A DNA stretch of 64,000 nt from Tubulanus polymorphus. Its lineage: Eukaryota > Animalia > Nemertea. The notes under the pieces were generated by a model. The model searched no databases. It was not told the DNA's origin and saw only the letters and a program-made list of their open reading frames with translations. The translations under genes were made by a program, and so were the position numbers. Shown here one piece after another: positions 15,365 through 63,648 of the stretch (position 1 is the stretch's first letter; the number at the start of each line of letters is the position of its first letter). The stretch is taken from contig NC_134033.1 of NCBI RefSeq assembly GCF_964204645.1, positions 16,128,655-16,192,654 of the forward strand. The letters are read 5' to 3'.

Positions 15365-15569
15365 CTGAAATCAGAGATGATACAAATATCATTATATCGA
15401 GTATTTCACACGACGGATCGTAAAGAATCTTATTCAAAGGCGAATCACAAGGCAATGTGATGTTGTCATAAGGGGAATTTTTTTGGTATTTTTTTACTGT
15501 AAGGTTCTATCGATCAAGCTTTACTTCAAGTAGTAACTTGATCGATAGAAAATTACGGAGTCCTAGCAA

Positions 15570-16000: not shown

Positions 16001-16012
16001 TATATAGCTTAC

Positions 16013-34000: not shown

Positions 34001-34235
34001 ACAAACCCGGTCGTACAATGCACTTCTGTAAACAGGAAAATGAAACGAGGAAATCACCGTAAATTCGCAAGATTCGAACGATATTATTAAGATAATATGT
34101 ATAAAGATATGATCATTAAGATAACATTTCATTGTTTGTTCGACTTTTTGAATTTTTGAAAATTGTTTGATTACTTACTCATGCATTTTGCTCCTACTCT
34201 GTGAGTTTTATGCGGGCAATGCCAGTTTTGAGTCG
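16013..34235 (-). CDS. Array of 56 phase-1/phase-1 micro-exons encoding 58 CPxG(Y/F)xxxx(x)xxC two-cysteine modules (2811 nt, 937 codons)
   Basis: Exons, each with AG/GT ends and a length that is a multiple of 3: 34179-34235, 33978-34025, 33507-33545, 33191-33238, 33014-33061, 32759-32806, 32616-32666, 32488-32532, 32163-32210, 31903-31950, 31762-31812, 31333-31377, 31152-31199, 30529-30624, 30394-30441, 30258-30302, 29665-29760, 29406-29450, 29082-29132, 28940-28987, 28736-28783, 28596-28640, 28462-28509, 28137-28181, 27981-28031, 27550-27597, 27411-27461, 27205-27249, 25834-25881, 25700-25744, 25408-25461, 25227-25244, 25050-25145, 24892-24939, 24577-24624, 24405-24452, 24209-24259, 24066-24113, 23932-23979, 23754-23801, 20969-21022, 20818-20865, 20398-20445, 20125-20172, 19635-19679, 19494-19541, 19348-19395, 19214-19267, 19088-19135, 18899-18946, 18476-18523, 18134-18181, 17999-18046, 17569-17616, 17215-17262, 16013-16060. 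Examples: VKCPPGFIKRGNTCL, VCPEGYKKIGKKCI, IYCPPGSQVFHGNCV. Confidence 0.9.
18644..18785. repeat. Two abutting AT-rich palindromes
   Basis: 18644-18689 has perfect 19-bp arms and an 8-nt loop. 18690-18785 has 46-bp arms with one mismatch and a 4-nt loop. Confidence 0.9.
19850..19960. mobile_element. Fully palindromic ~110-bp MITE (Tourist/PIF-like termini)
   Basis: GGGGCCGGTTTTA-GACTGGTATTACCTT...GGCTAACTCAATT / AATTGAGTTAGCC...AAGGTAATACCAGTC-TAAAACCGGCC, with TCA on both flanks. Confidence 0.75.
20270..20311 (+). ncRNA. Minimal type I hammerhead ribozyme (Penelope/retrozyme type)
   Basis: CCAC-CUGAUGA-U-GGCUGUU(AGUC)AACAGCC-GAAA-CG-UU|GUGG: intact core, 7-bp stem II, 4-bp stem I, vestigial palindromic stem III, and AATAAA just downstream. 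Confidence 0.8.
20585..20708. mobile_element. MITE family B (CTTAGACTGGTCTTAAG core)
   Basis: TIRs GGGGCCGGTTGCA / TGCAACTGGCACC; homologous to 43155-43294, 57206-57345 and 25961-27184. Confidence 0.75.
21183..23519 (+). CDS. Nested antisense gene: herpesvirus-tegument-like (peptidase C76/VTD-type) deubiquitinase, 281 aa, 5 exons
   Basis: Exons 21183-21446, 22152-22358, 22721-22841, 22923-23088 and 23432-23519 are all GT-AG (phases 0,0,1,2) and give 846 nt of open frame. Motifs: SLYDQ..RGTQC84TSIAVQAVI..WNSDDLDLILCDGHKLH..GAILT..SVAI..YMVLD224SH226RRDRHG..GHAVLLAFESTDHLIRY..QFQLTPV. Confidence 0.82.
21766..21964 (+). mobile_element. tRNA-derived SINE in intron 1 of the nested gene
   Basis: A box TGGCCGAGTGG, B box GGTTCAAACCC, a non-tRNA body and an A10 tail. 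Confidence 0.75.
23174..23382. mobile_element. MITE family A copy in intron 4 of the nested gene
   Basis: TIRs AAGCCGGGATCACACGG / CCGTGTGATCGCGGCTT; homologous to 726-999. Confidence 0.75.
25961..27184. mobile_element. MITE family B copy expanded by an internal satellite
   Basis: GGAACCAGTT left end, AAAAGTGGTCGTAAATCTTA and TCTAAGCCATGA...CAACTGGCAC right end match family B and enclose the 47-bp array. Confidence 0.65.
26234..27116. repeat. 47-bp tandem repeat, ~18.5 near-identical copies
   Basis: Unit GAACCATTATGAGCTTAGACTGGTCTTAAGTTGTTAGATT(A/G)GTTGTT; starts at 26234, 26281, 26328 ... 27082, with one 2-bp insertion near 26673. Confidence 0.97.
29925..30097. mobile_element. Tc1/pogo-type MITE
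   Basis: TA|CAGCCAAACCCGCTTAATCCGGATC...GATCCGAATTAAGCGGATTCTACTG imperfect TIRs. Other elements with similar termini lie near 17870-17909 and 30785-30840. Confidence 0.6.
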
Positions 34236-36191: not shown

Positions 36192-37288
36192 CTATGGTCC
36201 GAAGAAAGGAAGCTGATCCGGCCTACGGATCGGCCTGGCGAAGGCGCGGGCTCGTTGGCGGTATCTGCTACGTTTAGCCGCTTCACTTTGTAGAAATCTG
36301 TGCCACAGCGACAACCTGTTAAACTGTCGTCCGGCGGCGAAAGCGGAATTTCGTGGCCGTTGGATAGCGCGAGGATTAGCTGCACGTCCCCCTAACGATC
36401 CACCAGCAGCCTGGTTAGCTGGTATGTGAGGAGGCGGTTGCGGCTTGACGGGTGGTTCTGCTCCGGCCTGTGAAGTAGCTCCATGAGCTGCAGGTTCACT
36501 AGGCACCTGGGGTTTCATTCCTCCTGGACTTCCAGGAGCCTGCTGAGCATCAGGTTCACTAGGCACCTGGGGTTTCATTCCTCCTGGACTTCCAGGAGCC
36601 TGCTGAGCAGCAGATTCACTAGGCACCTGGGGTTTCATTCCTCCTGGACTTCCAGGAGTCTGCTGAGCAGCAGATTCACTAGAGGGCTGGGGTTCCATTG
36701 CTCCTGAACTGCCGGGGACCGGCTGGCCAGCTTGTTTACTAGGCGCTTGGGGTTTCATTTCACCTGCACCTCCAGGAGCCTGCTGTTGGCCAACTGGTTT
36801 CCCAACTCCAGCACCTCCTCGCATCAATGCGCTCCTCAGACGATAAGCCGCCATGACTGGTGACTCTTGTTTACGTTCCCAGCCACCGGGTGGCATTATC
36901 GGGTGTTCGGTGACCTTTTTTTCCGGATGTAACCACGGTTGCGGCTCGTGCCCGTGACGCATGCGCCATCTCATTCCACCGGGGAACTCCTGCGGTTTAG
37001 GAACCGGAGCGTGTAATCCGACATTCTGGGCGAAGTGTGGAATACCAGAATGGGCTCCTAGGATTTTACCTGGTTTCTTAGGTGGTGGTGGAGGTGGTGG
37101 GGCAGTAACTGGCAGGTGGGTGGTTGTAATTTCTGGTGGATGTGTGGCGGGTGGGCGTGTGAAGAGTGGTTCTGGGGCGGGTGCTGTAGTCGGTGGTTTA
37201 GTCGGCGGTTCTGTTGGTTTCTCCGTAGTGACTTCTGGTTCCTTGTGACAGTTGACTTTTGCTTTACCACACTCGGAGAAAGCCCCGA
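36192..37288 (-). CDS. Proximal terminal exon: PT-rich stalk, 20-aa GSPGGMKPQVPSESAAQQAP repeats, Arg-rich C-terminus
   Basis: ORF 36192-37301 with an acceptor at 37289 and a 60-bp tandem repeat at about 36490-36790. Confidence 0.85.
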
Positions 37289-40200
37289 CTGAAACGACCA
37301 ATTTTAAATCCGATATTTAGCATCAATAAAGTTTATCTTTAATCAACAATTGACGGTTCCACATTCCTTAGTTAGAGTTTATATTAGGAAACAAAGACCA
37401 GAACGACGCAAATCATGACGATATTGAACAATAAACCAATAAACAATTTCATCTTTGGGTTCAGTTTCACGAGAAAAATTGACTTCTAAATCGATCCAGG
37501 ATAAACCGAATCAATGAAGAATTTAAATCGATCTAAAGGTTAAAACTTTTTGTGAGGACTTTTTCTGGGTTTTAATTGACAGTCAATTCTAACCCGGAAC
37601 AGCGGAACCTGGTAAGGTCTATTTTTAGTTTACCTGTATTCAGTAGTATTGACAACCATTTCGCAAATCGGAACAGCCTCAAATTCGGAGCCAGAACAGC
37701 GTGTCTGTTCTTATTCTTCTGATCGAAAATATCTTGACGCGTAGAAGACGACGAGCCGACCGCGAAATAGATGACTCTCAGACCCTCGCGTAGCGCCACC
37801 TCAGCCTGGCGGACGGTGGCCGCTGTCTCTTTATGTTGACCAGCGCCGATGATGACCAGCAGTTTCTTGCAGCTGATGCGACCTCCCGAACGCGTCGCGA
37901 ACGAGTATTTCCTAGCTACGTAGATCCCCTGAGCCGCGTTGGCGAAGCCGCCGCGATACTGTACTCGTTCTATGGCCGACATCACTTTCATTTTACTGCT
38001 CGAATCTTTCAGCCACATGTAAGTGGTGACGCCTTGGTGATAGGTGACTAAACCGACTCGAATTAACGACATTCCGACGTTGATTTGACTGACGACTTTT
38101 TGCACGAACGTCTTCACGATTTCGAGCCTCATGCGACCCATATAACGCGACGTGTCGATCAGAAATACGACGTCTAATTTGACTTTGTTTGCTATAAAAA
38201 AGGAGATAGAAATATCAAATAATCTGTACAATGTAATATAATATTTTCTCAATTCAAAATTCTAATCTTTGCTATTCTAAATGTATAACGACATTATTAC
38301 ATAAGGGCATTATGACTATAGCAATGTTGACTGCGTCCATGTCCTCGGATTGTATGAAAATGCATGTTAATGTTTTCAGCCCAGTACCCCTCAACGCTTA
38401 GTTGTGTGCTCTTCGGAAAGTTGCCCTTCTCATTCATAGTAAACCTTATACCCCCTCATAGAACTCTAGATCTGCCCAAAACTTACGTGGATTGTAGAGT
38501 TTGAAACATTTCTCGCCTATCTTTGTTTCGCTTGGTTTGCAACGTGGCCCTGTAAATATAAAAAAAAACAATATGTATATGTTAACACGTTTGTACGAAT
38601 TTAATGCTGTAAATTTATCATTATTTCAGGACTTGACCATCTGGTACTATTCGGTTACAAACTGAGGAAGCATCAAAACATTTGGGGCGTTATATATTAC
38701 ATTAAATGTTGCCTTATTTCAAAAATAAAATTTATCGAACAGTTTTTTTTTAGATTGTCGTAAGATTATTACCTGTAGGTTTTATGTGCGGTCCATTTCC
38801 CCATGAACACTCGAACGTAGCTGGAAAATCGAAAAATAAAACATGAAGACATTCTATAGACATCCTACATAAACTTCTCGGTAAGGATTGAGATATTTTC
38901 AGGGACAGGGGTCAGGGGTAGTTGTTGCTAATTCTTAAAATCTTTAGGTGTTATACGTGTTTGTGACACTCAGTGAAAAAGAAATTGATTTTATAACGTA
39001 TTCGCAAATGGCTCCATTGTAGTCTGTGAAAAATCCCTCTAAATTCCCGCGTATCACCAAAAGATTTCGCAATGCGCATACAACTACACCACGCACCCCT
39101 TTCGTCGGCCTTGGCCTTTATAAAAACAAGTGACTGATGAATACCGGTAATACTCACCCCGCATAAAACTTAAAATGTTCCGAATTAGCAAAATCCACGA
39201 GAAAAAAGCGTCGCGTTGTATGGGCATTTTATAGTGTCAACATTTGCTATAAATCGTTTAATGTATAAGACTACAATGGAGCTAGCGAACACAAAATATT
39301 GCCACAAAGACTGGTCCCGGGACTAGAGGGGATTGATGACCCAATCAACGAAGGAGACTGGTGCCCGACCCACTGGCGATACCGGTACCTATTTACCGAG
39401 ATTTTCGCGACGATTTTAATTGAATATAGTCATACACAGTTAGAGTTAAGATTATTTCGTTTCATCGAGTTTACTCTGAATCTAATCTAAATTTAGATCT
39501 GTGGAACCGGGTCCAGTTGATTACAACATTTTTCCCATTCCAGATATCCACACATAAAATGCAATTCCTATAATTCAACGTGATCACATAATTTCGCTCA
39601 CCTCGTATAATAGCCGTCTTCAATTTAGGCACGGCGCTTCGGAACTGCATGAAACTGTTCAAGAACGCCACCTGGTGACCGATGCCCCACAACTCCTTGC
39701 GGTTGATATTCTGCCCGATGCCGATGACGAACAACCCGATGCGCAAAGATCTGGCCATGTAAGCCTGATGGATGGCCTCCTCGTTGTTGATCGATTTTCC
39801 GTTCGTGATCATGATGGCGAGTTTCGGGACTCCGGGTCGAGCGCCATTTTTCGGCGAGTAACAATCGACCCTCATTACACGTAGCGCCTTGGCCATGTTT
39901 GTGCTGCCACGTTGGTATTTCAGGTTCCTGGGAAAATGTGGAAATTCGTATGAAGTTTATTAGAGCGTTTGGTTGTGTAAATTTTTATAATAATGTGATT
40001 TATATAGCGCTAAAAATTTTGGAAATGACGAACATAGCTTTTTTAAGTTCGACTGATTTCAGAGTTAGATTAAATCCACGCAACTGTGGAACTTGGTCCA
40101 TATTCAAATTAGATCCACACAACTGTGGAATTGGGTCCAGAGGTAAATTAAAAGTTGAATTAAATGCACACACAATGTGGAATCTGATTCACAGTCAAAT

Positions 40201-43200
40201 GAAACCCACAGACCTGTCGAACTTGACCTAGAGTCTTAAATGAAACCCACATAAGTGTGGATCTGGGTTCAGAATCAAATTAAACCCACAAAATTGGAAC
40301 TAGGTCCAGAGTTGTCATGTTGACTTACCTGATTTGTTGAACGACGGCTTTATTACTGTTTGATTGGCTCAGATGGAACGACACGACGGCATTTTTACCG
40401 AACGTTATAACAGCGATTCTAATGCTACCGGTACCGATTTTAAACTGTTGTACGAAGCGAATGAGGAACAGTTTCATGATGTTGAAGTTTTGTGGTCCGA
40501 CGCTGTCTGACGAGTCTAACATGAACACTATATCCGCCTCTCCGTCAAACTCTACAACACGAGACAATGAAAAGCTCTAGAAACTCTAGAAACAACTAAT
40601 ACGTGGAACTGGATCCATTAATCTAGATGTCTGTGTTGATTTATTTTAAGGATTGTGAGAAGTCTATGGAACACTAAGCTTAGCCGGATCCACAAACCGT
40701 ACTTACGCATAGCTGGGAAGCATCGTCCCCTGACGGACATATAACCAGGAGGACAATGGCGTGGTGGTGATACTTCTGGTGGTGATACCTTTTTCGTGGT
40801 AGCTGCCTCTGATGTTATTGTAACTGAAACTGAACGTTATATACCGGTATGTCGCATTGGAATCTGAGTTTGAGTGGAAATGAACGTTCAGAAACAATGC
40901 GCAAAACATTGCCTTTCACAAGAATAATGTAGATGTACCTGCTTCAGACGCTGGCGTAGCTGTTGCTTTTGGTGCCTCAGTTGTCGGTGGCTCAGTTTTT
41001 GCTGCCTCAGTAGTTGGTGGCTCAGTTTTTGGTGCCTCAGTAGTTGGTGGCTCAGTTTGTGGGGCAGCAGTAGATGGTGCCTCAGTAGTTGGAGATTCAG
41101 CTGGTGCGGCTGTAGTAACTTCTTCGGCTTTTGCGGTGACTGCTGGTGGCGGTGGAGACTAATTGAGAAAAATACATTAATATTTATCAAATTTCAATGG
41201 AAATAGTTCATTTTCTTTAAACTGATTGATATTTACCGCTTCGGCCTCCGGTTTCTTAGATGTTCCTGCTGAAGATGGAAAATGTCTGTTAACAGTAGTT
41301 ACGTACTATATCGAATATCTATGGCTTTGAATTGATGACTTGATTCGAAAAAAAACTTACGTTTACCAGCACTGTGGCATAGGAATGATATCCCCTTCCA
41401 TCCCGGTGGACATGAGAAACCTTTCGAGATAAGATTATTTGACGTAATGACGAAATGATAAAGGTTTGGAAGTCTAAGGTCTTGACTATCGAAATCAATT
41501 TGGTAAGTCCATGCTGTGAGGAACGCTACCACACAGTGGAACTTGGCCCAAGTGTCAGGACAGAATGTTTTATCAGGTGGAATGAGCGTTACTTACTGAA
41601 AATGCGTTGACAGTGTCCTTTTACAAGCACCTGACCCGACGGGCAGACGTGACCTGGAATAGACGGAACACCACGAAATAAATAAGCGGTACTTGCCGAA
41701 CGATTGATAATTTTCAATCGGAGATGAATTCCACAGAAGAGCTTACGATTAACGATACACTTGTTGTTGTGGAGAATGTAACCTTCGGGACATTTCTCTA
41801 CAAATAAAAACCGAGTTATGATCGCTTTGGCTAAAGAAAACTTGGAAGAATATGGAGTGACCCAAATCACAAAGCAATTTACTACATTTCATCGGTATAT
41901 ACAAAATGTCTTATATAATATCCTCCTTAATGAAGGTGTATGTTTATGGGTTGATTGTAAATAAGGTTATTATGAAATGAATCTAAATGAAATGGCAGCA
42001 TTAACGAATTTTCGTCTGGAACTTACGTTTGGCCCTGAAACACAAATGCGACTTGTGGATGAAACCAGGTGGACATTTTCCATCTGTTCAGAAATATAAA
42101 ACATACATAGTTTAGTTAAATATACAGTAACATCGAAACAAAACGTAGTTTAGATCATTGTATTTACTTAGTTCTGGGATGCCGGCCATTACTCCATGTC
42201 GGCCTGTGTCAGTCTCACCCTGAGCCGCTTTTGTCGCCTCCTTGCTGGGCTCGGTAGCATTCGCTGGGGCCTCAGTAGCCTTTGGAGGTGGCGCTGATGT
42301 GGTTCCAAAATCGTCTCGTACAGTTATCGCCTCCTGTTTGGCAGCTGGTAGCTTCTTTTCGGCCTCATTTGGCATCTCCGGTTTCAGATGAGCAATATGG
42401 TGTTCTTTGATGTGTGACATATCCAGCTTTTTCTCGGTGTCTGTAGCAATCAAAAACAACATCTATTCAAGTTTCTAGCTTCACATAAGTTGCTGTTTAA
42501 TGTTATAGGAGACTTAATTGCCAAAGTTGACTGGCCTTTCTGTACTGGTGGTATGTAACCATTGCATTAATGATTGATGTTGCATGAACTATTGGGCACT
42601 TGGGCCTCCACTGCACAGCACAGCACTTGATCACTTGGGCTTGCAATACGCAGCACTAGGTATCTGAATATTGCTACAAACTTATGTATGAAGCAACTAA
42701 GCTCGCACTGCGCTGTACAACACTGTGGTCTAAATACTGCTTAACATCTAACTACATGTATTTGCCCCCTGAGGATAGAAACATACGTGTTTCAACTGGA
42801 GCCGGAGTTGTTTCTTCGTGTTTAGCTTCGTGTTTAGTTTCTTCAGGTGCTGCAGCGGTAGTTGCTGGCGGAGCAGCCGATGGAGCTTCTGGTTTTTTCT
42901 CCTCTTTCGCTTCTTCCTTCTTTCCTTTCTTCAACAGGCCTTCTAAAATACAAATGAAAATTCCACGCGTTATAGATCATGGGATTCCACGTACAAAATG
43001 ACTATGACTGTTTTTGTGTTACCTGGGAAGCAGCGATGGGAGACATGAATATAGTGAGGTGGGCAGCGACCAGCTGAAAATAGAGATACAATAAAATCAC
43101 GTAAGTTTAAGACAGGAAAAAAGGCTGAAGATGAATTTTCTTCGATAAATATCTGGGGCCAGTTGCACAGTCGTGACTTAAGTCCAAAAGTGGTCTTAAA

Positions 43201-46200
43201 TCTTAAGACCGGTCTTAATTTGTTAGAATAGCTATAGAACAAAGTTGGTCTTAGACTGGTCTTAAGTCTAAGCCATGACTATGCGACTGGTCCCTGGTGA
43301 AGATTACCAATTCAAGAAGAAACGCTAAGTTCATTTCCGAAGATATACGTTCAACATGGTTCGAGGCATCTATTTATAACCTCTTGGTAACGCATTTAGG
43401 GAAACTTACCTATTTCTGAAATAACTTTCATCGTGCTTTCGTGGCTGACTAACGCTGCTGGTTTTTCTCCTGTATTCGATTTTCCCACTGAAACGAAAGA
43501 AACACCTTTGATTTTCCTCTTAAAAGACAGAAATCCTCACATAGGATATTCTCTTACTTACATTCTATCGTATAATGACATAATTTAGCCTCTAAGTGAT
43601 AATGTGGTGGACACTTTCCACCTGTAACATAGAATTAAGCGAACATCAGTAAGAATTCTCAAGTCAGCGTAACAGCAATAGAGAAATAATAAACCCCTAC
43701 CGATAGGTGGCAGAGTTTTTGGCGGTCCTTGTTCGCCCAATGTTTTACTCTCAGCTGGTTTTTCTGCTGCAGAAGCTGTGGCATTTTCTTCTTTCTTATG
43801 CGCCTCTGCTGGCAATCAAAAATAGACATTGAACGTGCAAATCATAAAGAATGGTAAGATTTATGACCAAGAGTTTATTATAATCACCTGCTTCAGGTTT
43901 GTGTTCCTCTTCTTTCCCTTTGCCCTCTTCCTTAGGTTTCCCAGCTTCTTTAGGTTTCTCTGCCTCCTTAGGGTTTTCTGCCTCCTTAGGTTTCTCAGCC
44001 TCCTTCGGCTTCTCTGCCTCCTTCTGCTTCTCTGCCTCCTTAGGTTTTTCTGTCTCCTTAGGTTTTTCTGCCTCCTTAGGTTTTTGTGCCTCCTTAGGTT
44101 TTTCTGCCTCCTTAGGTTTCTCAGCCTCCGTAGGCTTCTCTGCCTCCTTAGGTTTCTCAGCCTCCTTCGGCTTCTCTGCCTCCTTAGGTTTCTCTGTCTC
44201 CTTAGGTTTTCCAGCTTCTTTAGGCTTCTCTGCCTCCTTAGGCTTCTCAGCCTCCGTAGGCTTCTCTGCCTCCTTGGGTTTCTCTGCTTCCTTTGGTTTC
44301 TCAGCCTCATGTGCCTTATCGTTAGACGTTCCCAGTGGATTTGGAGAGCCAACTTACGAAAAATCAACATTTAGATTGTGTCAAAAAAATGCAAAGAAAT
44401 TACCATAAAAAGAAAATAAATTGACAAAGGAAATACTTACGGCCTTTCCTTACAGGATCTACAAAGGGATTGAATCGTTATTTACGATGAAAAACATTGT
44501 CATTGGAACGAGTAAATTATTCACTGAGCGTAATTTATATACATGTGACTTACTCATAATACAAGTGCCGCTTTGTTCGTGGTAACCAGCAGGACACTTC
44601 TTACCTACAGAAGGAAAGTGACAAGTAAATATGGATATCTCTCGTAATATCTCCTTCAACATCAATCACAATCTCAGACTACTGGAAACTTACCACTTTT
44701 GATACAAGTGTGACCGTGAGTGTGTAAAGAGAATCCTTTTGGACACGGTTCTGTGAAGAACATATACAATACTTGATTCCAATACATTCAAAGGTTAGGA
44801 TCGGGGTGAAGTTCAACCCAGTCCCATCACTCGGAGGCAAATCGCCCGAGAAGAAAGTGGATCAAATTGAAGGACTAAGGTTCATAGTTTAAGTTCAAAA
44901 ATCGCTGACCTGAGTCAAAGTTACCGAGGGTGAATGCAATTTCAGCCCATAAACTCTAACTAGACTCGTCAGACTTAAAGGCAATGATATTCAAATGTTG
45001 TATTGGGACATGTTGTAGAGGGGTATGGCTTAATGCTTACTTTTCGGCTCACGATAGCACAAGTGAGCATGGAGTAGATAATGCGGTGGGCATTTTTCCT
45101 CTGAAAAATAATACGAATATTCAGACGCAGTTTACAAGGAAAAACCCTGACAGCAAATATGTGCCAGCACTGGATTGCTTACCTTTTCCTGTACCAGCAG
45201 GTTTGACAGTTTCTGGTGGTTCTTCCCCGTTAGCCTTGCTCTCTGCTTCTTTTTGTGCCGGCTTTTCTGCTGCAGGAGCTGCGGCATTCTTTGGCTTCTC
45301 AGCCGTCGCTTGTTCTTCTTTCTTGTGCGAATCTATTCAGAAAAGTATATAAAACGACTTTCGTCGCGTTCATTATATTCAAACCTGTCACAAACAATAT
45401 AGAGAAAATAATATATAGCAGAAACTAAATGAACAACAAATAAAAACCTTCTTGTTTTGAATCCTTTTTCTCAGTTAGTACAACTTTAACAGTAGCTTTA
45501 TCAACTGGCTTTTTAGCAGAAGCACTCTCCTCTGGCTTTTTAGCAGGCGCAGTATCTTCTGGTTTTTTAGCAGATGCACTCTCTTCTGGCTTTTTAGCAG
45601 GGACAGTTTCTTCGGTTTTTACTTCTCCTTTGCCTTCGCTCTTTCCACCTTTTCCTATCGGGTGAATGAATTACAATGAAGCAAATATGACCGAGGTTAT
45701 ATGTGGATCATAATCTGAACCCAGGACCGAGTTAACTATCCTAAGAACACAAGTAAAATTTTAAAGCAAGTTTTAAAGCACTACAATTCTACTCGCCAGC
45801 GTCGATACTCTGTAGACATTTCACTAGGCGATAGTCGAGAATAAGAGAAGTAGAGGGGTTTTTCCGAATATATTTATAGTAAAATTCACCAATTTGAAAG
45901 GTTCACCCAAGTTGACCGATAACGGATATAAAGGAGTACAAATATAGGTACGAATATACAGTTTCATGAAAACGAAAAACCATTTGAATTTTTTTCATCT
46001 CATAGGCAAATTAATAATTTCGATCCCTCGTCTTCATGAAACTCACCTCCAACATCAATGCACTCTGCACCAACTTGAATCTGACCTTTCTTACATTTAC
46101 CTCCTAAAGGTTAATTCAAACAGAAAAGAAAAGAAAAACATCTCAATACGAACCGATGCTATAGCTACACGAATTTCCGTAATTGGAACAATGATGTAAA

Positions 46201-52200: not shown

Positions 52201-55200
52201 TTGTTGGTGAAGTTTTGGACAAGGTGCTGAAAAATTACAAACGCTTTAATTAAAACTTACTACAGATTTAAACAACACTCACGACTGGATATACATTTAT
52301 GCACTATTAGCTAAAAAGACTTACAAATGCAGTGGCCTTCGTGGAAGATATGTCCAGGTAGGCAGATCTTTGGCGCTTCTGAAGATATATATGTCAAATT
52401 TGTATACATTCATATCAAAGAGAAAGAATTGATACTTAAAATCCATCGACACTTACTTTGACATTTGCCTTTGTGGTATGTCAAACCTGGCTTGCAGTTG
52501 ACATCTGGAAAAAGAGTAAAGAAATTTTACTGGCGACGCTATTTATACGTTGTCTCAAGCGAAGATAAATGGTTTTTCCATTACCTGGACATTTTCCACC
52601 CACTTTACGTTCGTTACCAACGCAAGATTCTGCATCTGAAACAAATTAAAAGGATTGAAATATATGTGGGTTTTCACATTAACTATGAACTACGTGACTA
52701 AAATAACTTACATTGTACACACTTTCCATGATGTAGCATCGTTTTAGGTGGACATTTATTAAGTTTTGGTGCTCCAAACCGGGCTCCAGATTCACTTCCA
52801 TCTTTCTTTTCTTCTGGTTTTCCTTCCTTTGGCTTCCCTGCTGAAGTTGCATTCTTTCCTTCAGCTTTCCCTTCCTTTGGCTTCCCTGCGGCAGTCTTAT
52901 TCTTTTCTTCTGGTTTTCCTTCCTTTGGCTTCCCTGCTGCAGTTCCAGCAGTTCCATTCTTTCTCTCTGATTTCCCTTCCTTTGGCTTCCCTGCGGCAGT
53001 CTTATTCTTTTCTTCTGGTTTTCCTTCCTTTGGCTTCCCTGCTGCAGTTCCAGCAGTTCCATTCTTTCCCTCTGGTTTTCCTCCCTTTGGCTTCCCTGCT
53101 GCAGTTGCATTCGTTCCTTCAGCTTTTCCTCCCACTGGCTTCTCTGTGGCAGTCTTATTCTTTCCCCCTGATTTCCCTTCCTTTGGCTTCCCTGCTGCAG
53201 TCTTATTCTTTCCTTCTGCTTTTCCTCCCGCTGGCTTCCCTGCTGCAGTTCCAGCAGTTCCATTCTTTCTCTCTGATTTTCCTTCCTTTGGCTTCCCTGC
53301 GGCAGTCTTATTCTTTTCTTCTGGTTTTCCTTCCTTTGGCTTCCCTCCTGCAGTTCCAGCAGTTCCATTCTTTCCCTCTGGTTTTCCTCCCTTTGGCTTC
53401 CCTGCTGCAGTCTTATTCTTTCCCCCTGATTTCCCTTCCTTTGGCTTCCCTGTGGCAGTCTTATTCTTTCCTTCTGGTTTTCCTTCCTTTGGCTTCCCTG
53501 CGGCAGTCTTATTCTTTTCTTCTGGTTTTCCTTCCTTTGGCTTCCCTCCTGCAGTTCCAGCAGTTCCATTCTTTCTCTCTGATTTTCCTTCCTTTGGCTT
53601 CCCTGCGGCAGTCTTATTCTTTCCTTCTGGTTTTCCTTCCTTTGGCTTCCCTGTGGCAGTCTTATTCTTTCCTTCTGGTTTTCCTTCCTTTGGCTTCCCT
53701 GCTGCAGTCTTATTCTTTCCTTCAGCTTTTCCTTCCGCTGGCTTCTCTGTGGTAGTCTTATTCTTTCCTTCTGCTTTCCCTTCCTTTGGCTTCCCTGCTG
53801 CAATCTTATTCTTCCCCCCTGATTTCCCTTCCTCTGGCTTCCCTGCTGCAGTTGCATTCTTTTTTTCTGGTTTTCCTTCCTTTGGCTTCCCTGCGGCAGT
53901 TCCATTCGTTCCTTCTTTTCTTTCTGGTTTTCCATCTTTTGATGTCCCTGCTGTCGCATTCTTCTTTCCAACAGGTTTCGTAGCTGCAGCTGTCTTTTCA
54001 GCTCCATTTTTCTTATCCACACATTTCCCATTTTGGATAGTTTCGCCTTTTTTACATTTCGGTTTCTTCACACACTTGGCATCTTTTATCACTTGGTCTT
54101 TCTTACATTTCGGAGCTTTGACACACTTTCCTTTTTTGTCTTTCACTTGTCCATCTTTGCACGATTCGCCCGCAGTAGCATTTGTTTGTTCTGCTTTTGT
54201 CGGTTTCACGCAATCGCCATTCTTGATAACTTCATCCTTTTTGCACGTGGGTTTTTTCACGCAAATCGCATCTTTTATGACCTGGTTTTTTGTGCAAACT
54301 GGCGCTTTCACGCATTTCCCGGCTTTATTTTTCACTTTTCCCTCCAAGCAGGTTTGAACGCAGGCACCGTTTTCTAACTTTTCACCAATTTTACATTTCG
54401 GTTTATCTACACACTTTCCGTTGACAATAATCTTGTTCTTTTGGCATTTCGGTTTCTTCACACAAACGTTGTCGACAACTACTTGATTTTTTGCACATTT
54501 ATGACATTTTCCATCTTTCAAACCATGACCTGCTGTGCATAGTGCCTCTGCAAGTTAAACGAGAAATTCATCGAGAGAAGGTACATGTAATGCGTAATTA
54601 TCAAGTAATCGAGCATTCAATGTTTGCTATTCCTCATATCCTGAAGATCCAGTCTCATAGGCAAAGCCTAGTGGTTTGTTTCAAATCATAACTATGTTGC
54701 TCAAAAGACAAGACAGATTCGTCGTTAGTTAATAGGTTGGCTATATATCATGGTCTTAGACCCGTCCTGAGTTGTTAGATTGGCTATATAACTGACACGG
54801 CCTTAGACTGATCTAAAGTCATGACTATGGAACTTTGGTTTCACTGCGGACGTGTCTTTCTTACTTACTGTGTTCACCTTTACCAACACTTTCACAATAT
54901 CCATATTCTTTGTAGGTGTCGTAGTCGAATTTCGTAGCGCACCACGGCTCCTTGCCGTCGATGTTGATACAGTTGAAGTAGTACTTGTTCTTGTATTTGA
55001 ACGGGAATATGCAGTAAGCTCCTTTTCCGGTGCCTCCCTTTGTTCGCGTAGGATCTGTAGACCGAACAAAATCCACGAATAAGATTAAGAAGGAAAACTA
55101 ATTTTCTCCCCTTATTAATCACACGGGGTTTCAGACGAACAGGATATATTTAGACGTTTCCAATTCTGCTATGTCCTTCTAATGCCATCGTGCCTTACCT

Positions 55201-58200
55201 TTGCAGTATCCCCATTTTTTATCCTTGTCCATGTCCTTCGTGGTCGAACACCACGGTTTCTCCTTGTCGTCCATTATACACGTCCAGTGAACGTGTTTTT
55301 TATACACGTATGGAAATTTACACTGTTTACCGTTCGAATTTCCATCAGTTGTTCCAATTTTTCCTATAAAATATAGAATAAAACGACAATATAGCTTGGG
55401 AAGGTTGAACCAAAGCAATGCTAGACGTTCTTTCGGTGACGAGCCTCTTCTAGTTCACTATCAATCAATCCACAGCCAAAGAACAAACCTCCTTAGACAT
55501 TCGACATTTTGTTCACCGCATTCTTCCAATTTTGATCTTCAGACTTTCATGACTATTTTTGTTGTTTCGTTGTTCAATATCTTGAAGATTTGTTTCTGAA
55601 TGTTACGTTACAATGATCTTAAATCCTTTCTTACCTGTCAGTCGTGGAACGCACTTGTTTACAAATAGTTCTTCGTTGAGTTTACAATTAGCTGGAAATG
55701 AAGAAGTACAATTTTTTTCGTTTTTTTACGAGAAGATTGTCATTTTCGGTGACTTCAACGATTCATTAAAACTATTATATTAATATTAATGAAAGATTCC
55801 TCATATTTTCAATATATACTAAAATGCTTACATTTTGACTTCGGGAGACATTCCTTGCCAATTCGCTTCATTCCTGGTGGGCACTTAACTGAAAGTTAAA
55901 CAATTGAAGTGATTTTATGACATAACACGTGAAGGTATTTTTCAGAAATTGGAATGGATACTGAATATTTACGTACTGTGACAAAGAGTGCAAGTCTTAT
56001 CTGTAAGAACGATGAAATATAGTGAAATAAAAGAATAAATGAAAGAGAATTCAAATTCTTTTCATATCGAGTTTAAGTTACTCCAATGTCGTACCTCGGC
56101 AATAACCCCATTTCCTATCTTTATCGTAGTCCGGAGTTGTGGCGCACCAAGCGTTTTTGGCTTTGATCATGACACAATGAAAGTAATACTTGTTCTTGTA
56201 TTTGAATGGGAACGAACAGTATCCTTCTCCTCCGTTACCGTTCATTGTTTTAACGGCTCCTAGTAAAAGTTAATCGATGTTATAGAAACCTTGGGGAATT
56301 TCTGCAGATTAAGGATATTAACTGAAAAGGCCGTGTTCCCGTGTTACAGTTTGAGTAACATCATGATCCAAACGACATTCACAAAAATCAAATAAACAAA
56401 CGATAGTTTGGGTTGTTTTTTACATACCATGGCAGTATCCCCATTTTTTATCCTTGTTGAAATCATGAGTAACAGCGCACCAGGGTTTTCCAGATTTGCT
56501 ATTTTCAGTGATGCAGTACGACTTAGATACGTTATGGTACATGAATGGAAACGCGCAATTTGCTTTTTTTCCGTTGCCGCCGTATGTCTTGACAACGTCT
56601 GAAAAACGACAAACATATTTTACGGATCCACATCAGTTGGGATGAGTGCTCAGTCAGTGGCGTAGTTGGTACATTTCCGTCCTGGTCGTACGGCTCGGAC
56701 CATAACGCATTGAATATATATTCACATATTACAAAAATCTTACCAGAGAATATAACTGTACAATTATTATTGAACATCCACTGGCCGATCGGACATTTGC
56801 CTCCTGTAACGGAACAAACATAGAACATCATACATAGAACAACATGCAACCGTGCGACGATTCTCTTTTTATTTACCGAACGAGCATCATACATATTCAT
56901 TGTTTTAGATTCCGATGAAATCAAAACTTTCTCTTTTTCTACTTACTAGGTTTACACGCGTTGCCGACCTTGACCTCATTTGTCTTGCACGCAACTGCAG
57001 CTGAAATAGGACAGACGAAAACATATATAGATCTGCTAAATTCTGGTGAGAGGGGTGGGCTATTTGTGGTGGGGTACAATACGGTATTTTGATGATTATA
57101 TACACCCGATCACACCAGTTCCCGGTTAAAATTCAAAAGCGACCGACCGACAGGTGGAGCCAGTCGCCGGTTATATGTCACAGATATTCGGAGGCAACAT
57201 CTACAGGGGTCGGTTCCATATTCAAGACTTAAAACCAAAAGTGGTCTTAAATCTTAAGACTGGTCTTAAGTTGTTAGATTGGCTATAGAACTAAGTTGGT
57301 TTTAGACTGGTCTTAAGTCTAAGCCCTCACTATGGAACCGGACCCAGGAGATGAGGAGTCGGGAAACGATCTATTCTGCTCAATACTGTTAGTTATAGGT
57401 ACGATAAAAGTTTAAAGGTAGAAAAAAAAACCCACGCAAAGTTGTAGCTACAACCATTAGCAAGCCGCGTATGAAAAAGGACACTGTGTCACGCAATACG
57501 ATTGGTTTAATGATAATCACGTGTTAGCAGTAAATAAAAATGGCCGATAGGAAGTTAGTGCGGAGTTTGAATATTAATCAGGTTTCGTGCAAATTAAACC
57601 AAAAACATCGATCGACGTAGCACAGTGTTATTACCGTGGATGCAACTGACTGGAGGGTGTTCACACGGTGCTCCGATCTGAAACGATAGTTCACCGAATA
57701 CCGGATGGATTACCTCTCAGGAAGGGAACGCACTAAGACGTGATTATATCATTGATTGCAGCGATTACAGTGTCCACAGTGTGAGGAGTGTGAGCAGCGT
57801 GCGCGCGCAGATCCTTACCCATTGAAGCGTAGCAGATTTTTCCGTTTTTCAAAACGTAATTCTCCGGACAAAATAATCCGAATTCGGGCATCACTGAAAC
57901 GAATAGTGTGAATGTTATTTATTTATTCAGTTCAATTTTGGTTCTGATGAGTTTTCGATTTCTATAAGAGTAGAGACTGAGACGTGTTAACCGGATGTCA
58001 AACCAGTAAACACGAAGACAGGTGATTATATGTAGGTTTGATATTATTCGAAATGCGAACTTTCAGTGATAGTGCTAGCTTTGTTAGGTAAATGTGTAAA
58101 GTTAACGAAGAAACACTGCCTCCCCCTATAGACAGCCTACTTTTGTTTCTTTATTGAACTTATAGTAGCGAAACTAGTAGCGAAAGCTCGTATTTCTAGT

Positions 58201-61200
58201 GGAATTGAGTAACATCATCCTCCCTGGCAGGGATTCGAACCTGATGCATCGCTAGACTCGGTCACGGCACAAACCCTGTCACAGTAGACCGGGTGCGCAG
58301 GTACATGCGCAAGTTCACCGCGCGTTCGATCAGAATGCTCGTTGCATATTCGTTGCAATTTACGGATCTAACTATAAGTGGAAAGAACCCGGGCTAAAAT
58401 GAAACGGGATTTCCAATTGGCTAATAATAACATCATCGTAGCTGCGCAGGTAGCTCCGTACTCGATCTATTGTGGCAGGTTGTCCTACGGTGGCTAGTCT
58501 CGATACCATCAGGTTCGAATCCCTGCCGAGGGAGTACGAGTGAACGTACACAGTATTACCAGTCTTCACGCTACTAATGCAATTAAAGTTAATACGGCGC
58601 TCACACAACGAATATGGTAATTCATTGTTCTTTTATTTAGAGGGCCAATGAAAGACCCGTAATACAAATTTCGATATTGTATATATATATATATATCTGA
58701 AGATCAACCGCATGTGCCGGATTATCTTACCGGTCATTCGGACACATTGTTCCGTCTTGATACGAACGTACCCAGGCTCGCATGGTTTAGCTAAAACAGA
58801 CAATGATAATATCAATCAATCGATTCGTAATCTCAAGTATTATTTGAAAGTTATTTTCAATATAGTTCCTTCAATCAATTCAAAAAGGTCACGAATTAAT
58901 ACTTGGGTAAACTTACGTTCATCGCGGACGCAAATTCCACCAACAACTGTCTCCCCTTTGGGACACAATTTCACTGGCTTTTGAGGTTCGGGCTTGACGA
59001 GGTTCCCTGAAGATTTGAAATCAGTTAGGAAATAACATCGTTAAGACTGTTACGTAACCCTTCCGTCGTGTCCAAAAAAAAACTTGGCTTTATAACGAAT
59101 ACATGTGGCGTTTTGAAGGATGATATTGCGGATGGTATCAGCTTTCTCCGTGATTTAGGGTTACATTTGGCAGACAGAGGTTTTTTGTGATCACTGATTA
59201 AGATGTACCTTTTAACGCGCCCAGCAGCCAGTCGATGTATTCATTTATATCTTTATGTGAACAGCAAACTGATTGATTTCCAGGCGCAACCATTCCTATA
59301 CTTTTGGAATTTGATTTCGGTCCTGAAAACGAAAACTTCTATCATTAACAATCTAATTTGAATACGGGCGCTGATTGGCTTAAACGCCAAACTCCGGTTA
59401 ATTAATTGGCTCATATTATTATTACTCCGGGCACAATTCCGCAGATTGTATATATGTTTTTTTTTTGCTTTACGTCGTTCCGATATTATTTTTCCAAAGA
59501 CTACACATACTACACTGTTAGCAGCAAGCAGGTTTCAAACCCTCTTGTCACTCAGTACTGATCTTGGTTTCCCAACCCTAATGGATTGTTGATTAAACCT
59601 GGCGACTTGACCGCGGCCTTTGAAGTGTTGCACGCCGTAAGCAACCAGCATGACTTACAGTTGTGAATGGTCAGGCCCCACAATATTTGAAATCATTAGT
59701 GCAATACAAGGCATCCTCTAGAGTGTTAAGATCAAACAGTCAATCACTTCTAGTCATCCCTCGTGTCAATCTAGTCTCTGCGGGTCACAGGGGGTTTTCT
59801 TACTCCGCCCCACTACTTTGGAACTCCTTACCAGATGCAATTAAATCTAGTCCTTCTACTGATGTTTTTAAATCGCAACTTAAAACCCATTTGTTCACTA
59901 AAGCTTTTAACTAATGATGTAAATTGTTTTTTCTGTCTTTACGTTTAAATTGTGTCTTAAAGCCAATATGCATATTTTATATGGATTTTAGGCTCAATAA
60001 ATTATTATTATTATTATTATTGTGAGTATAAACGAGTCAGATTTGACTGGCTCCAGAACTGTAGAACTGTGTCTTTCGGGACCCAATTCTACAGGTCGTG
60101 AGTTAAGATTCGAGTCAGCATTGACTTTTTGAAAATCGACTAAATCTAACATTAATTCAAGACTGGAACTGGACCCAATATTCTACGAGGGTTAGATTTA
60201 ATTGGGAACTAGCTCCAGAACTGCGGAACTGTAGAACCGGATTCTATGAATTACCCGTAGATATGTAGATAATTTCTATTCGTTTCCGTTTCGCTGATTT
60301 CGCAGCCGATTTCGCCTTGTGTTTATTCGACACCTGACCGCTGCCGACCAACACCAGATATCGGCGTGTATATCTTCTTCCTCCGTGATTTACTGCAAAT
60401 CCGTGTTTCCACGCGAATTTGATAGCTCTATCCAGTCGACTAGGCCCTGCGAGTAAGACGTGAATAATATACCGAGCAATTCGAATAGGAAGTTTTTGAA
60501 ACGGTTAGGTAAAGCTGCACCGAGGCATCACTCGTAATGCGTCTCAGTGGAAGCCAAGCGCAAGCTGCTGAATGAGGTGACAGCCATGGTTGACAGCTTA
60601 CGTCCAATATGACGCGTGCATAATATGTCTGACGTCCGAGCATTTACCTACGTGTAGGCTTACGTAGATTTTATTAGGGATCCCCACAGCTGCGAAATGA
60701 GGGATTCCCTTCTCAAACAGGGGTGAATCCAGAAATTTTGGGTTTCGCAATTCTGACAAATCCCTCTAACTGTGGGCGAAGCTAAAGCGAAGTGTATTGT
60801 TAAAAATGTTTAGAAAATTAGAGTAGATCCAGTATTGGGAAGCTAGGTTATTGTTTGGAGGGAAATCGGGATATCCAGTGTAGGGCAGCGGGGTTATTCT
60901 GCGGAAAAGCGTGAGGAAATCCAGTGTAGAGAACAGGGGCTACTTTGCAGACGGGAATAAAGAACTCCAGTGCAGGGAGGTAGTGTCCTTACCGCCGTTA
61001 TATTTGATATTATCCAATGATTTCACGGCTCTATCTTTGTTAGTGTTTCTCTTAAACCAGCCGTAAACAGTGGTTTTACTGTGGTAAGTCAATATAGCCA
61101 CAGATACATTCCTCGGGTTGATGTACAATTTCGTCAGGATGATCCGCACGAATTCTTTAGCCGCTTCGAACCCGGGTTTTCCCATTTTTGATGACGCGTC

Positions 61201-63648
61201 AATCATGAACATGACGTCTGCCTTTTCTCTAACTGAAGATAGTCAAATTTTCGAAATATTGGTTCTGATTCAATAAACCATTTTACAGTTACTCCGTCAT
61301 TTTGTTGGGGTAACATTGTCCTTATTGCTGGGTCATTTTTTTCTCTTTTTTAAGAACTATTTATAATATTTGAATATAAAAGATCTATTCTTACCTCCTT
61401 GTGCAGCCTGAATACACTTATTTCCGATTCTGAAGTATCCAGGTTTGCATTTGCCTAAATAAAACCGATTTCAGGGAATATTAGAAAATCTCATGATTCA
61501 GTATATATAGTAAAGCATACTTGGATGTTCTTGTGTAATTTAATTGATCTATTTACCCGGTCTTTGACATTTCGAGTTTTGCGAGACGAAACCTTTCGGA
61601 CACCTTATCTCGGCTGTAAATAGAGAAAGCGTCAAAACTCAAAATGCCACAAAATGGATGGACATATCGTTATTATTTTCTAATGATTTCAGGATTTTGC
61701 TGTGATTTCATCACGGCTTAGATTTAATGCTAGCCTGAAAGCGTCTTAGTTCTATAGCCAATTCAACGATATGAGTCCAGTCTCGAGATTTAAGACTATC
61801 TTATCGAGGTCCAGAAGAAATGGGATTTCTCAGATAAAAAGCCAAGTCAAAGGCTATTAGCGCAGGGCCCACTCTCGGTATGAGATATTTTCTAAGAAAT
61901 ATGGAATTCCCGAAACGATGAATGTCAAATTTACGGGTTTTAATGATCTTTGTCGTGGCGAAAAGGGCAACCTCCGTGGGACCGAGACCATTCCTTGAAT
62001 CTGCCCCTGCGTTTACCATGACTATCCTACGATGGTTTCAGCAATAGTAAAGTTACCTTTACAATAGCCCCACAGTTTGTCCTGATCATAGTATTTGGTA
62101 GTAGCGCACCACGGCCGTTTAGCGTTCAGCAAAATACAAGTATCATAACTTTTCTCTTTATAAACGAAAGGAAAGATGCACAGCTTCCCGCCTCCAGTTC
62201 CTTCGACTGTTTTTATTTTCACTACAAAAAAAAGCGTGACAAGAAAATCAACGTCTAATTTTCAAAACATTGAAATTGAAGACAATGAACTTACGGGGGG
62301 GGGGGGTTACCGGCGGGCGCACACCAGATAGCTAACAGAACACTCACGCACCTGTTCTTTCGTTCGTCACTTTAATACATTTCGAGCCTTCTTTTTTGTA
62401 ATGAACAGGACATTGACCTCTATCTATACAGATATAAACAGACGCGTTAAGAATGTCACTAATTCAAGTCCTGTACCGTCTTGTGTCGCAGTGGAACTGA
62501 GGTTATCAACCAGAGATGATACGATACGTACTGTAGATACGATGACAGATTCCATTTCGTCTTTCAAACCCTTTTGGACACGTGGTCGGTGTACCTATAA
62601 ATATATTGTACATTAATGTTGCATTTCTACTAAATTGTAATATGTTTAACTGATCTGCTTCGTGTTATTCAGCGGGTAGACGGGTGGTTGGTGCAAAGTT
62701 TAAAAGGGTAGACGGGTGGTTGGTGCAAAGTTTAAAAAGGAATGTGATCTAGTTTCGAAAGGAAGCCAATTCTAAAACGTTATGGCAATTTGTAGCCAGC
62801 TCTATAGTCAGTCAGTTCTAGCCAGTTCTAATCAGTACTAATCGGCTAGCCGTGAGAACCAGTTCTCAGTTCTAACTGAATCTTGCCGGTTCTAATCAGC
62901 CAGCTGTAAGGACTAGTACCAGTTAGATCTAGTTAGTTCTATTTTCAAATTCAGACACCAACCGCGGTAACCGAGGATCGATCGAATATCGTTTTTTTTC
63001 TCCGAGAATTATAGTTGAAATTTAATTGTCGGAGAACACCTGTTGGGATCGGAATTAGGAATTCATTAGTAGCGATCGGAACGAACCAATCGATTCGGTT
63101 CTCTGCATCTAGCCGTAGTACATCCTCGCTTGTCAGGGTTTGAAGCTCACCACGCCGACACAAACCCATCATTGGTCTGTTACACCGCCCAAAATTTCTT
63201 GAGCGGACAGGTTGTCGCTCAGCGGTCACCAGTCTATATATCTAGCCAATCAGGTACGTTGTACTGATCTGCCGGCGAAAAATAAACGCTATTGATCGGC
63301 TTAATACATAGACTGGTGGCCGCTGACTGGCAACCTGTCCAAGAATTTTTGGTGGTGTTATACACCAATGAAGGGTTTGTGGCCAGGCAACCAAACCCTG
63401 GCAAGCGAGGATGCCCGGAGTATACGGTTCCAACACTAACCCATTATTTTACTGTACAACCACTGGCTGGATCGTTTCACCTTGACCATAACGAAATTTC
63501 CGGTTCCGGTAACAGCCTTCATTTCACGTTTGTTCACCTTGTCGTTGGCGACCCAGTAAATTTCAATTCTTTTCTTCCTCAATTCTCGTCCGATTCTCGA
63601 TGAAGCTAACATGTTGTTCGAACTGCCAGCTCCCAGTACCACTATTAC
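36192..63648 (-). CDS. Giant VWA/FN2/Cys-module/Lys-rich repetitive extracellular protein, 5'-partial (58 exons, 13635 nt in window)
   Basis: Exons: 63441-63648, 62532-62594, 62352-62423, 62057-62221, 61557-61613, 61395-61454, 60993-61232, 60255-60446, 59209-59322, 58917-59006, 58731-58790, 57819-57893, 56947-57000, 56744-56803, 56428-56598, 56095-56259, 55977-56000, 55832-55888, 55635-55691, 55199-55363, 54869-55054, 52712-54547, 52585-52635, 52457-52504, 52325-52378, 52182-52226, 47750-52045, 47326-47427, 47162-47221, 46833-46892, 46675-46725, 46047-46103, 45448-45654, 45183-45332, 45041-45100, 44694-44750, 44554-44604, 44441-44458, 43888-44352, 43701-43805, 43562-43621, 43410-43487, 43023-43073, 42787-42942, 42168-42440, 42027-42083, 41747-41797, 41597-41653, 41361-41420, 41237-41268, 40939-41158, 40707-40823, 40329-40551, 39602-39927, 38773-38820, 38487-38549, 37634-38191, 36192-37288. 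Splice phases are compatible throughout and the total is divisible by 3. Confidence 0.88.
37634..38191 (-). CDS. VWA domain 4 (single exon, degenerate MIDAS)
   Basis: KLDVVFLIDTSRYMG...IRVGLVTY...YRGG...GGR...LLVIIGAG. Confidence 0.9.
39602..40551 (-). CDS. VWA domain 3 (two exons, near-intact MIDAS)
   Basis: ADIVFMLDSSDSVG...YQRGSTNMAKAL...GARPGVPKLAIMITNGKS...LFVIGIG. Confidence 0.92.
40073..40312 (-). repeat. ~40-bp minisatellite (GGATCCAGTTCCACAG family) in the VWA3 intron
   Basis: CCACACAACTGTGGAA(C/T)TGG units, as at 12362-12705. Confidence 0.8.
43155..43294. mobile_element. MITE family B, full-length ~140 bp
   Basis: TIRs GGGGCCAGTTGCACAGTCGTGACTTA / TAAGCCATGACTATGCGACTGGTCCC. Confidence 0.8.
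43888..44352 (-). repeat. Coding 18-bp repeat exon, (EAEKPK)n, about 20 copies
   Basis: GAGGC(A/T)GAGAA(A/G)CCTAAG units in frame with the flanking phase-1 splice sites. Confidence 0.88.
47750..52045 (-). CDS. 4296-nt exon: Lys/Ser/Gly/Asp repeat blocks alternating with Cys-module clusters
   Basis: ORF 47742-52187. Repeats include SSKGKPSETGDKTKEA, GGEKGNKTESSASGK, KDKSSKDDKSKDTSK and KKPSDKSESKRT. Confidence 0.92.
52712..54547 (-). CDS. 1836-nt exon: Cys modules followed by (TAAGKPKEGKPEGKNK)n
   Basis: ORF 52698-54521; acceptor at 54548 and donor at 52711. Confidence 0.92.
54869..56598 (-). CDS. Four fibronectin type II domain exons (56428-56598, 56095-56259, 55199-55363, 54869-55054)
   Basis: Each matches C-x-FP(F/Y)-x-Y...C...WC(A/S)(T/V)..D(Y/F/M)D.D/Y..(W/Y)GYC. 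Confidence 0.93.
57206..57345. mobile_element. MITE family B copy
   Basis: TIRs GGGGTCGGTTCCATA / TATGGAACCGGACCC; internal sequence as in 43155-43294. Confidence 0.8.
58220..58534. mobile_element. Foldback element whose arms contain a tRNA T-arm/B-box motif
   Basis: CTCCCTGGCAGGGATTCGAACCTGATG... / ...CATCAGGTTCGAATCCCTGCCGAGGGAG; complementarity extends for about 80 bp. Confidence 0.6.
59209..61232 (-). CDS. VWA domain 2 (three exons, degenerate MIDAS)
   Basis: KADVMFMIDASSKMG...VAILTY...YNGGPSRLDRAI...GGR...LVLVGSG...IEIIYIST. Confidence 0.88.
59661..60021 (+). mobile_element. 5'-truncated non-LTR retrotransposon 3' end (L2/CR1 group)
   Basis: ORF2 C-terminal motif APQYL..LRS..RGFSYSAPLLWNSLP..FKSQLKTHLF, a short 3' UTR, AATAAA and an (ATT)n tail; TTGTGA at both junctions. 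Confidence 0.85.
62057..62221 (-). CDS. Fibronectin type II domain exon
   Basis: GKLCIFPFVYKEKSYDTC...PWCATTKYYDQDKLWGYC. Confidence 0.93.
63121..63413. mobile_element. Foldback MITE with long imperfect TIRs
   Basis: CATCCTCGCTTGTCAGGGTTTG / CAAACCCTGGCAAGCGAGGATG; the arms extend about 125 bp. Flanks CCGTAGTA and (C)CCGGAGTA resemble a decayed 8-9 bp TSD. Confidence 0.78.
63441..63648 (-). CDS. C-terminal part of VWA domain 1 (rest lies outside the window)
   Basis: VIVVLGAG...LRKKRIEIYWV parallels LVLVGSG...KRKRIEIIYI of VWA2. Confidence 0.75.

Follow-up and report, generated by a model that had tools for sequence, protein, structure and literature searches.

The 64,000-nucleotide stretch of contig NC_134033.1 of the nemertean Tubulanus polymorphus (assembly GCF_964204645.1, positions 16,128,655 to 16,192,654), hereafter called the window, carries on its minus strand a giant modular gene, designated gene A, which runs from 63648 to 36192 and whose product, to judge from its sequence, is very probably a secreted, glycosylated, polycationic matrix or structural protein. 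The hand-built model consists of 58 exons joined in one open frame of 4,543 residues, in agreement with the length of more than 4,500 residues given in an earlier note on this DNA. All of the introns are of the GT-AG type, 55 of the 57 are in phase 1 and the longest measures 932 nucleotides; the 13.6 kb of coding sequence contains neither a frameshift nor an internal stop codon, the sole stop being at 36192. The splicing is predicted from the sequence, with uncertain boundaries at exons 2, 32, 48 and 55. The exons encoding two-cysteine modules were recovered by an independent splice-site scan, and the loop pattern, absent from the plus strand of the window, was counted 67 times on the minus strand. 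Since exon 1 opens partway through a VWA domain, the 5' end of the gene lies outside the window, and the signal peptide had already been expected there. Possible exons at 57677, 56000 and 46596 were omitted from the model because they are weak or contain a stop in phase 1; the element at 46596-46545 (minus strand) looks like an exon remnant: phase 0 gives the start of a module and phase 1 contains a stop, so that it is possibly a decayed module exon.

Comparison of the window with independent contigs from two public runs (X1 and X2) placed 9 of 9 and 12 of 12 tested insertions and deletions in introns, with exons making up 45% and 26% of the compared DNA, respectively; these counts hold among the matches listed, some rows represent the same event, and three rows from high-depth repeat contigs were dropped. 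Among the matches listed in the first comparison there were 40 substitutions, 17 of them exonic (8 silent and 9 residue-changing), and none of the exonic ones created a stop codon or altered a cysteine.

The protein begins with the C-terminal half of VWA domain 1 (exon 1, 63441..63648), followed by two two-cysteine modules, an FN2 domain encoded by a single exon (62057..62221), two modules, VWA domain 2 in two exons (60255..61232), five modules, and FN2 domains 2-5, arranged as two pairs with two module exons between them (54869..56598). After the last FN2 pair come about 2,200 residues of module runs and Lys-rich repeats, which include exon 21 (52712..54547), with 11 modules, a 16-residue Lys/Gly/Ala/Glu/Thr/Pro repeat and 22 N-glycosylation sequons, and the 4.3-kb exon 26 (47750..52045), in which 27 modules occur together with four repeat blocks rich in Lys and Ser. 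The neutral zone that follows, of about 770 residues (40707..45654), is composed of a Glu/Lys/Pro hexapeptide repeat, Pro/Thr/Ala/Glu blocks and 10 His-rich modules. It is followed by VWA domain 3 (two exons, 39602..40551), two modules, VWA domain 4 (one exon, 37634..38191) and a Pro-rich tail encoded by the last exon (36192..37288), which contains Pro/Thr stretches, a 20-residue Pro/Gly/Gln/Ala repeat, an Arg-rich end and the stop, with an AATAAA at 36087. All of these features are on the minus strand. The Glu/Lys and Pro/Thr blocks and the His-rich loops listed in the earlier note were found in the neutral zone, Pro/Thr also in the last exon.

Pfam profiles identified FN2 (PF00040) above the cut-off in all five of the exons proposed to encode it (E 1e-12 to 2e-17) and VWA (PF00092) in six exons, which make up four domains. 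Against a gathering score of 23.8 bits, VWA domains 2, 3 and 4 reached 49.6, 61.4/48.1 and 93.7 bits; the half domain 1 obtained 16 bits (E 0.014), below the cut-off, so that three of the four VWA domains claimed earlier are whole and the first is represented only by its C-terminal half. The closest solved structures to the VWA domains are collagen VI alpha-3 and mussel PTMP1, the latter being the second-ranked match of domain 4 (E 1e-16). The consensus of the metal-ion-dependent adhesion site (MIDAS) of such domains is DxSxS...T...D. A full site is present in none of the VWA domains seen: domain 3 keeps four of the five positions (DxSxS and Thr, the last Asp being replaced by Asn), domains 2 and 4 keep fewer and are degenerate, and the half domain 1, whose first half lies outside the window, is without the last Asp. 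The collagen binding previously attributed to VWA is therefore doubtful in its metal-dependent form. All five FN2 domains keep the four cysteines as well as aromatic residues at the positions aligned with MMP-2 and fibronectin, and the GRxDG loop of MMP-2 is absent. On these sequences collagen or gelatin binding by the VWA and FN2 domains is possible; the strong charge of the protein would make binding to polyanions at least as likely.

The dozens of two-cysteine loops reported before amount to 71 modules in gene A, with a C-x10-C spacing in 57. Their pattern, C-P-x-G-Y-x5-6-C, is one that we take to be the C-terminal loop of EGF. As 30 exons carry a single cysteine pair each, and several modules lie far from other cysteines, a disulfide bond is probably formed within each module. 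The profile matches of the module were weak and comprised cEGF, EB and TIL; the sole match above cut-off was to cEGF, in one two-module exon of array B, the neighbouring series of exons described below (29.4 bits against 26.6), while EB stayed below its cut-off (23.3 against 24.3) and TIL gave one sub-threshold match. An AlphaFold2 model of 233 residues with 15 modules (50055-50753), calculated from an alignment of 33 of 84 library matches with a tool that reports no disulfides, showed repeated two-strand units with a mean predicted local distance difference test value (pLDDT) of 88.5 and a predicted template modelling score (pTM) of 0.48. In this model the array is locally confident and without a fixed global shape, and the prediction is a chain of β-hairpins in which each C-x10-C unit corresponds to one hairpin.

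Comparison of the modelled array with EGF, furin-like and TNFR cysteine-rich folds gave Foldseek TM-scores up to about 0.2 and VIA Z values up to 3.3; fold searches of the array returned no clear match, which does not amount to showing a new fold. The best Atlas search value was 0.88 for the cysteine array, with low recognition, and the tail gave no usable match. None of the 84 matches of the 50% library search reached E 1e-30. The ten that were looked up were generic Cys-periodic proteins, one being an ankyrin-like chance match, and three of them had cluster names (a bacterium, Entamoeba and an oyster). The like periodicity of cysteines in unrelated microbial proteins indicates that this type of repeat is not unique to the worm.

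The 169 cysteines of the gene A protein are distributed among FN2 domains (20), two-cysteine modules (142) and other positions (7, with one unpaired residue in each of VWA domains 3 and 4). The net charge is +351 for residues 1-2992, +5 for residues 2993-3764 and +58 beyond residue 3764; the polycationic character described in the earlier note does not extend to the neutral zone, and the polycationic blocks also contain 9-18% acidic residues. The VWA stretches all have isoelectric points of 10.6-10.9 and the FN2 domains of 8.4-9.3. Histidine amounts to 1.9 residues per module in the ten neutral-zone modules compared with 0.25 upstream. Tyrosine, which makes up 1.7% of the whole protein, does not occur in the 1,919 residues of the spacers, and runs of at least five Gly-X-Y triplets are missing from the window; the protein therefore appears to be neither a glue based on 3,4-dihydroxyphenylalanine (DOPA) nor a collagen. 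Triplets of the type [KR]-P-[DES] are enriched (41 versus 13), a motif that Chironomus sp-I reportedly carries as well. The only furin-type site (R-x-[KR]-R) is inside VWA domain 1. No transmembrane stretch, whose absence the earlier note had stated for the C-termini, is present in the 4,543 residues, the highest 19-residue hydropathy, 1.24, being found within a VWA domain.

Passage through the secretory pathway is made likely by the extracellular types of domain together with the enrichment of N-glycosylation sequons, of which there are 56 compared with a mean of 25.2 and a maximum of 42 in 2,000 shuffles, the reversed motif occurring 20 times. In the non-repetitive spacer at residues 1790-1875, six of the seven Asn residues are in sequons, which was matched by none of 2,000 shuffles. 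Searches for relatives, both of them weak, gave no orthologue of VWA domain 4 among 1,299 candidates in proteins of 325-2000 residues and none of the cysteine array among 66 in proteins of 2506-5000 residues, proteins above 5,000 residues being left out. VWA or the loop pattern was present in none of 26 metagenome loci with FN2, most of which are short; two of these contigs, L004 and L026, have six FN2 domains each and neither VWA nor the loop pattern. The proposal of an uncharacterised secreted structural protein is upheld indirectly, by the domain types, the paired cysteines, the sequons, the lack of a transmembrane segment and the lack of an orthologue in the weak searches; a glue of the DOPA type is not.

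As regards destination, the sequence tentatively suggests that the gene A product goes into the tube or the skin mucus as a cross-linking scaffold, a reading that stands at somewhat less than an even chance. The tube is favoured by the habits of the genus, since tubes are secreted in Tubulanus, as described for T. sexlineatus (PMC11167275). A vestimentiferan tube proteome is enriched in VWA proteins (PMC8476170), and such proteins are present in the byssus of a bivalve, the pearl oyster (PMC12817120). Runs of hairpin modules are predicted to form extended rods between disordered spacers, which would be flexible, glycosylated and cationic, and a net charge of about +400 would condense with polyanions such as acidic mucopolysaccharides. 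The basic VWA and FN2 domains would serve as binding nodes without MIDAS metal, and chains may be linked through the few cysteines left unpaired. Upon release into seawater, pH or metal may act on the His-rich neutral zone, and curing of the scaffold may come about through spare cysteines or contacts between His and metal.

Several observations weigh against this assignment, or against parts of it. Because the window does not reach the N-terminus, no signal peptide is in view and the protein may instead have a membrane anchor at that end; VWA and FN2, moreover, are just as typical of internal matrix. Most of the sequons are in tandem repeats and are not independent of each other, and there is no enrichment in residues 1-770 and 3000-3760. 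The phosphoserine motif S-x-E/D shows no overall enrichment (42 versus 39 expected, with a single enriched block), which, together with the lack of spacer tyrosine, indicates neither DOPA nor phosphoserine glue chemistry. As 9 of the 17 exonic differences alter a residue, purifying selection on the spacers appears weak. The tube reading also takes T. polymorphus itself to be a tube builder.

By analogy, the gene A protein works like the Macrostomum adhesive protein Mlig-ap1, the Chironomus tube proteins and the oocyst wall proteins, being a shown member of none of these groups. Mlig-ap1 and flatworm ap3 share with it giant size (5,407 residues in Mlig-ap1), a combination of matrix domains with positively charged low-complexity regions, and cohesion through charge; Mlig-ap1 differs in having C-type lectin, VWD, C8, TIL and EGF domains with Gly-Arg-Lys flanks (PMC9229212). 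Gene A has instead VWA, FN2, two-cysteine modules and Lys/Ser/Glu spacers with little Arg. No VWD or C8, which with TIL form the core of flatworm ap1 and sea star Sfp1 beside EGF and lectin domains, was found in 15 exons scanned, the 5' part of the gene lying outside the window; TIL gave one sub-threshold match. The earlier statement that VWA recurs in adhesives is correct for mussel PTMP1, pearl-oyster byssus and tubeworm tube and incorrect for the flatworm proteins, which carry VWD (PMC9229212). The VWA domains of PTMP1 and the pearl-oyster byssus proteins are of the same broad type as those of gene A, but PTMP1 is a 454-residue chain of two VWA domains in which the Asp of TDG is kept in the alignment, and it is without FN2 or hairpin arrays.

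The Balbiani-ring products sp-I and sp185/BR3 of Chironomus are likewise giant, repetitive, secreted proteins of underwater tubes with Cys-rich cassettes, according to PMC2113727, PMC2114959 and PMC12817120. Their cysteine spacing is unlike that of gene A, and the likeness is one of design. We know of no VWA or FN2 in these tube proteins. The oocyst wall proteins of Cryptosporidium and Toxoplasma resemble gene A in evenly spaced cysteines, a His-containing subtype and a proposed disulfide-stabilised casing, as described in PMC4514997; compared by description, the apicomplexan COWP units are of a six-cysteine type I/II, whereas the gene A unit has two cysteines per exon. The C-P-x-G-Y-x5-6-C pattern is shared with the EGF C-terminal loop and with EB and furin-like repeats, but the arrays are without the full six-cysteine EGF spacing and the loop is repeated by itself. 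Collagen VI alpha-3 and matrilin provide the top solved-structure match of the VWA domains and differ in that gene A is without a triple-helix run in the window and without a full EGF in the scanned exons. In the DOPA adhesives, i.e., mussel foot proteins and sabellariid cement, the repeats are rich in tyrosine, which the gene A spacers lack. The listings of literature searches showed no paper dealing with tube proteins of nemerteans or with an architecture of VWA, FN2 and two-cysteine modules, and nothing on tubes is contained in the available part of PMC6410017. Neither VWA nor fibronectin is named in the main text of a nemertean secretion proteome (PMC11768458), whose supplement may hold relatives.

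Among the other destinations, an internal extracellular-matrix linker of body wall or basal lamina, bridging fibrils of collagen much as collagen VI or matrilin do, is unlikely, though it is the strongest competitor. In its favour, the VWA domains belong to the collagen VI type, and in alignments the alpha-3 domains of the latter also often lack the last MIDAS Asp; the cysteines and aromatic positions retained in all five FN2 domains point the same way. The missing Gly-X-Y runs and the missing GRxDG loop speak against such a linker, and the fast-changing Lys-rich repeats, with no orthologue detected in the weak searches, would better fit lineage-specific secretion. A component of the proboscis secretion, located in the pseudocnida wall or a sticky coat and analogous to the Cys-rich nematocyst proteins, is distinctly less probable. 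Palaeonemerteans bear pseudocnidae, for which an adhesive role was proposed and whose structural compounds are described as uncharacterised in PMC7897414. A capsule wall would suit disulfide-rich repeats. Collagen triplets, on which the minicollagen design is based, are absent from gene A, and neither a VWA nor a fibronectin protein is named in the main text of a proteome of Cephalothrix proboscis and mucus (PMC12846013), the supplement of which may hold relatives.

The FN2 pairs resemble the seminal protein PDC-109 (E 3.9e-13), which binds sperm lipids, and an egg-coat, jelly or sperm-binding protein was considered on this basis; its probability is low. MMP-2, MMP-9 and fibronectin outscore PDC-109, partly through having more repeats, and among the families listed for the scanned exons there was neither ZP nor another of the egg coat. 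In favour of a gamete coat, the coccidian oocyst wall is built of Cys-periodic, His-containing repeats, according to PMC4514997. Lower still is the likelihood of a defensive or cell-surface protein, either a cationic mesh with antimicrobial action or a type II membrane protein with variant-making cassette exons analogous to the schistosome micro-exon genes; the strong positive charge, the unseen N-terminus and the module exons, all symmetrical in phase 1 and skippable in frame, are compatible with it, but the modules follow one conserved pattern, unlike a diversity system. That the model merges several genes or describes a decayed locus is hardly credible: the composition shifts at about residue 3000 and a phase-1 acceptor near 46596 runs into a stop after 14 codons, but that stop is not followed by an AATAAA and this 571-nucleotide intron offers no convincing start exon, for which reasons a split into two genes near 46500 was rejected, and the short introns, the intact frame and the 21 of 21 tested indels in introns also speak against this reading.

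The earlier note missed the array adjoining gene A. This array B (15078..34235, minus strand, read from 34235 to 15078) comprises 55 phase-1 exons, 52 of 39-57 nucleotides and three of 96 nucleotides, with 58 two-cysteine modules; its 1,025 residues contain 11% Cys and a Pro/Ala/Thr/Gly tail, the frame is open to its end and an AATAAA is at 14917. The exon scan gave 53 exons in phase 1, whereas the two other phases yielded 0 and 1 and the plus strand none in any of the three phases; two more were added from the splice-site scan. No convincing first exon for array B was found between A and B, and a candidate at 34440 was rejected as weak, with a short hydrophobic core and a phase-1 donor below the score threshold. 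Phase 1 is shared by the end of exon 57 of gene A and the start of B, and an AATAAA accompanies each of the two tails, so that B may be an alternative 3' end of gene A, or equally a paralogue whose start was undetected.

Just upstream of B, the segment 34388-34262 (minus strand) combines a strong donor with three in-frame stops and a number of Cys and Trp codons, and is possibly a decayed or untranslated exon. Between gene A and array B, on the plus strand, are two tRNA-Cys(GCA) genes (34850-34922 and 35523-35598); their position between Cys-rich coding arrays may be chance. A 2.7-kb intron of B contains a GC-richer insertion with short open frames (21700-23500), possibly a transposon fragment, and inside an intron of B, at 26215-27117, are 19 copies of a 47-nucleotide unit at 98% identity, relatives of which near 20600, 43200, 54750 and 57270 resemble a high-copy miniature element (very high contig depth). 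A 39-nucleotide dispersed tandem repeat family is found at 7317-7649, 12354-12710, 40060-40300 and 60100-60230. Elsewhere in the window, a G-protein-coupled receptor (1239-2381, minus strand) is 100% identical to the RefSeq protein 'adenosine receptor A2b-like [Tubulanus polymorphus]', the next match being from Lineus longissimus (60%), which confirms this palaeonemertean as the source of the window; upstream of the receptor 67 copies of a 6-nucleotide repeat (3230-3635) generate spurious open frames.

Among invertebrates, large secreted mosaic proteins confined to one lineage are common, and the surprise of finding one here is accordingly limited. The 129 two-cysteine modules of A and B, mostly in symmetrical single-module exons, nevertheless provide a clear case of sub-domain exon duplication, and the locus is a concrete target for proteomics of tube, mucus and proboscis. 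Should the product be a tube protein, it would represent an independent route to an underwater film, based on charge together with glycans and disulfide hairpins, in place of DOPA. A more far-reaching version, to which only a small probability is given, is that A and B are one locus encoding the tubulanid tube scaffold, with a transcript that ends in exon 58 or runs on into B. After VWA domain 4, exon 58 would then be skipped in favour of 55 further one-hairpin cassettes, giving about 129 disulfide hairpins, the number of which would be tuned by in-frame exon skipping. If true, this would be a first molecular component of the nemertean tube, a DOPA-free and collagen-free underwater material in which the lone EGF C-loop is used as an exon-sized brick.

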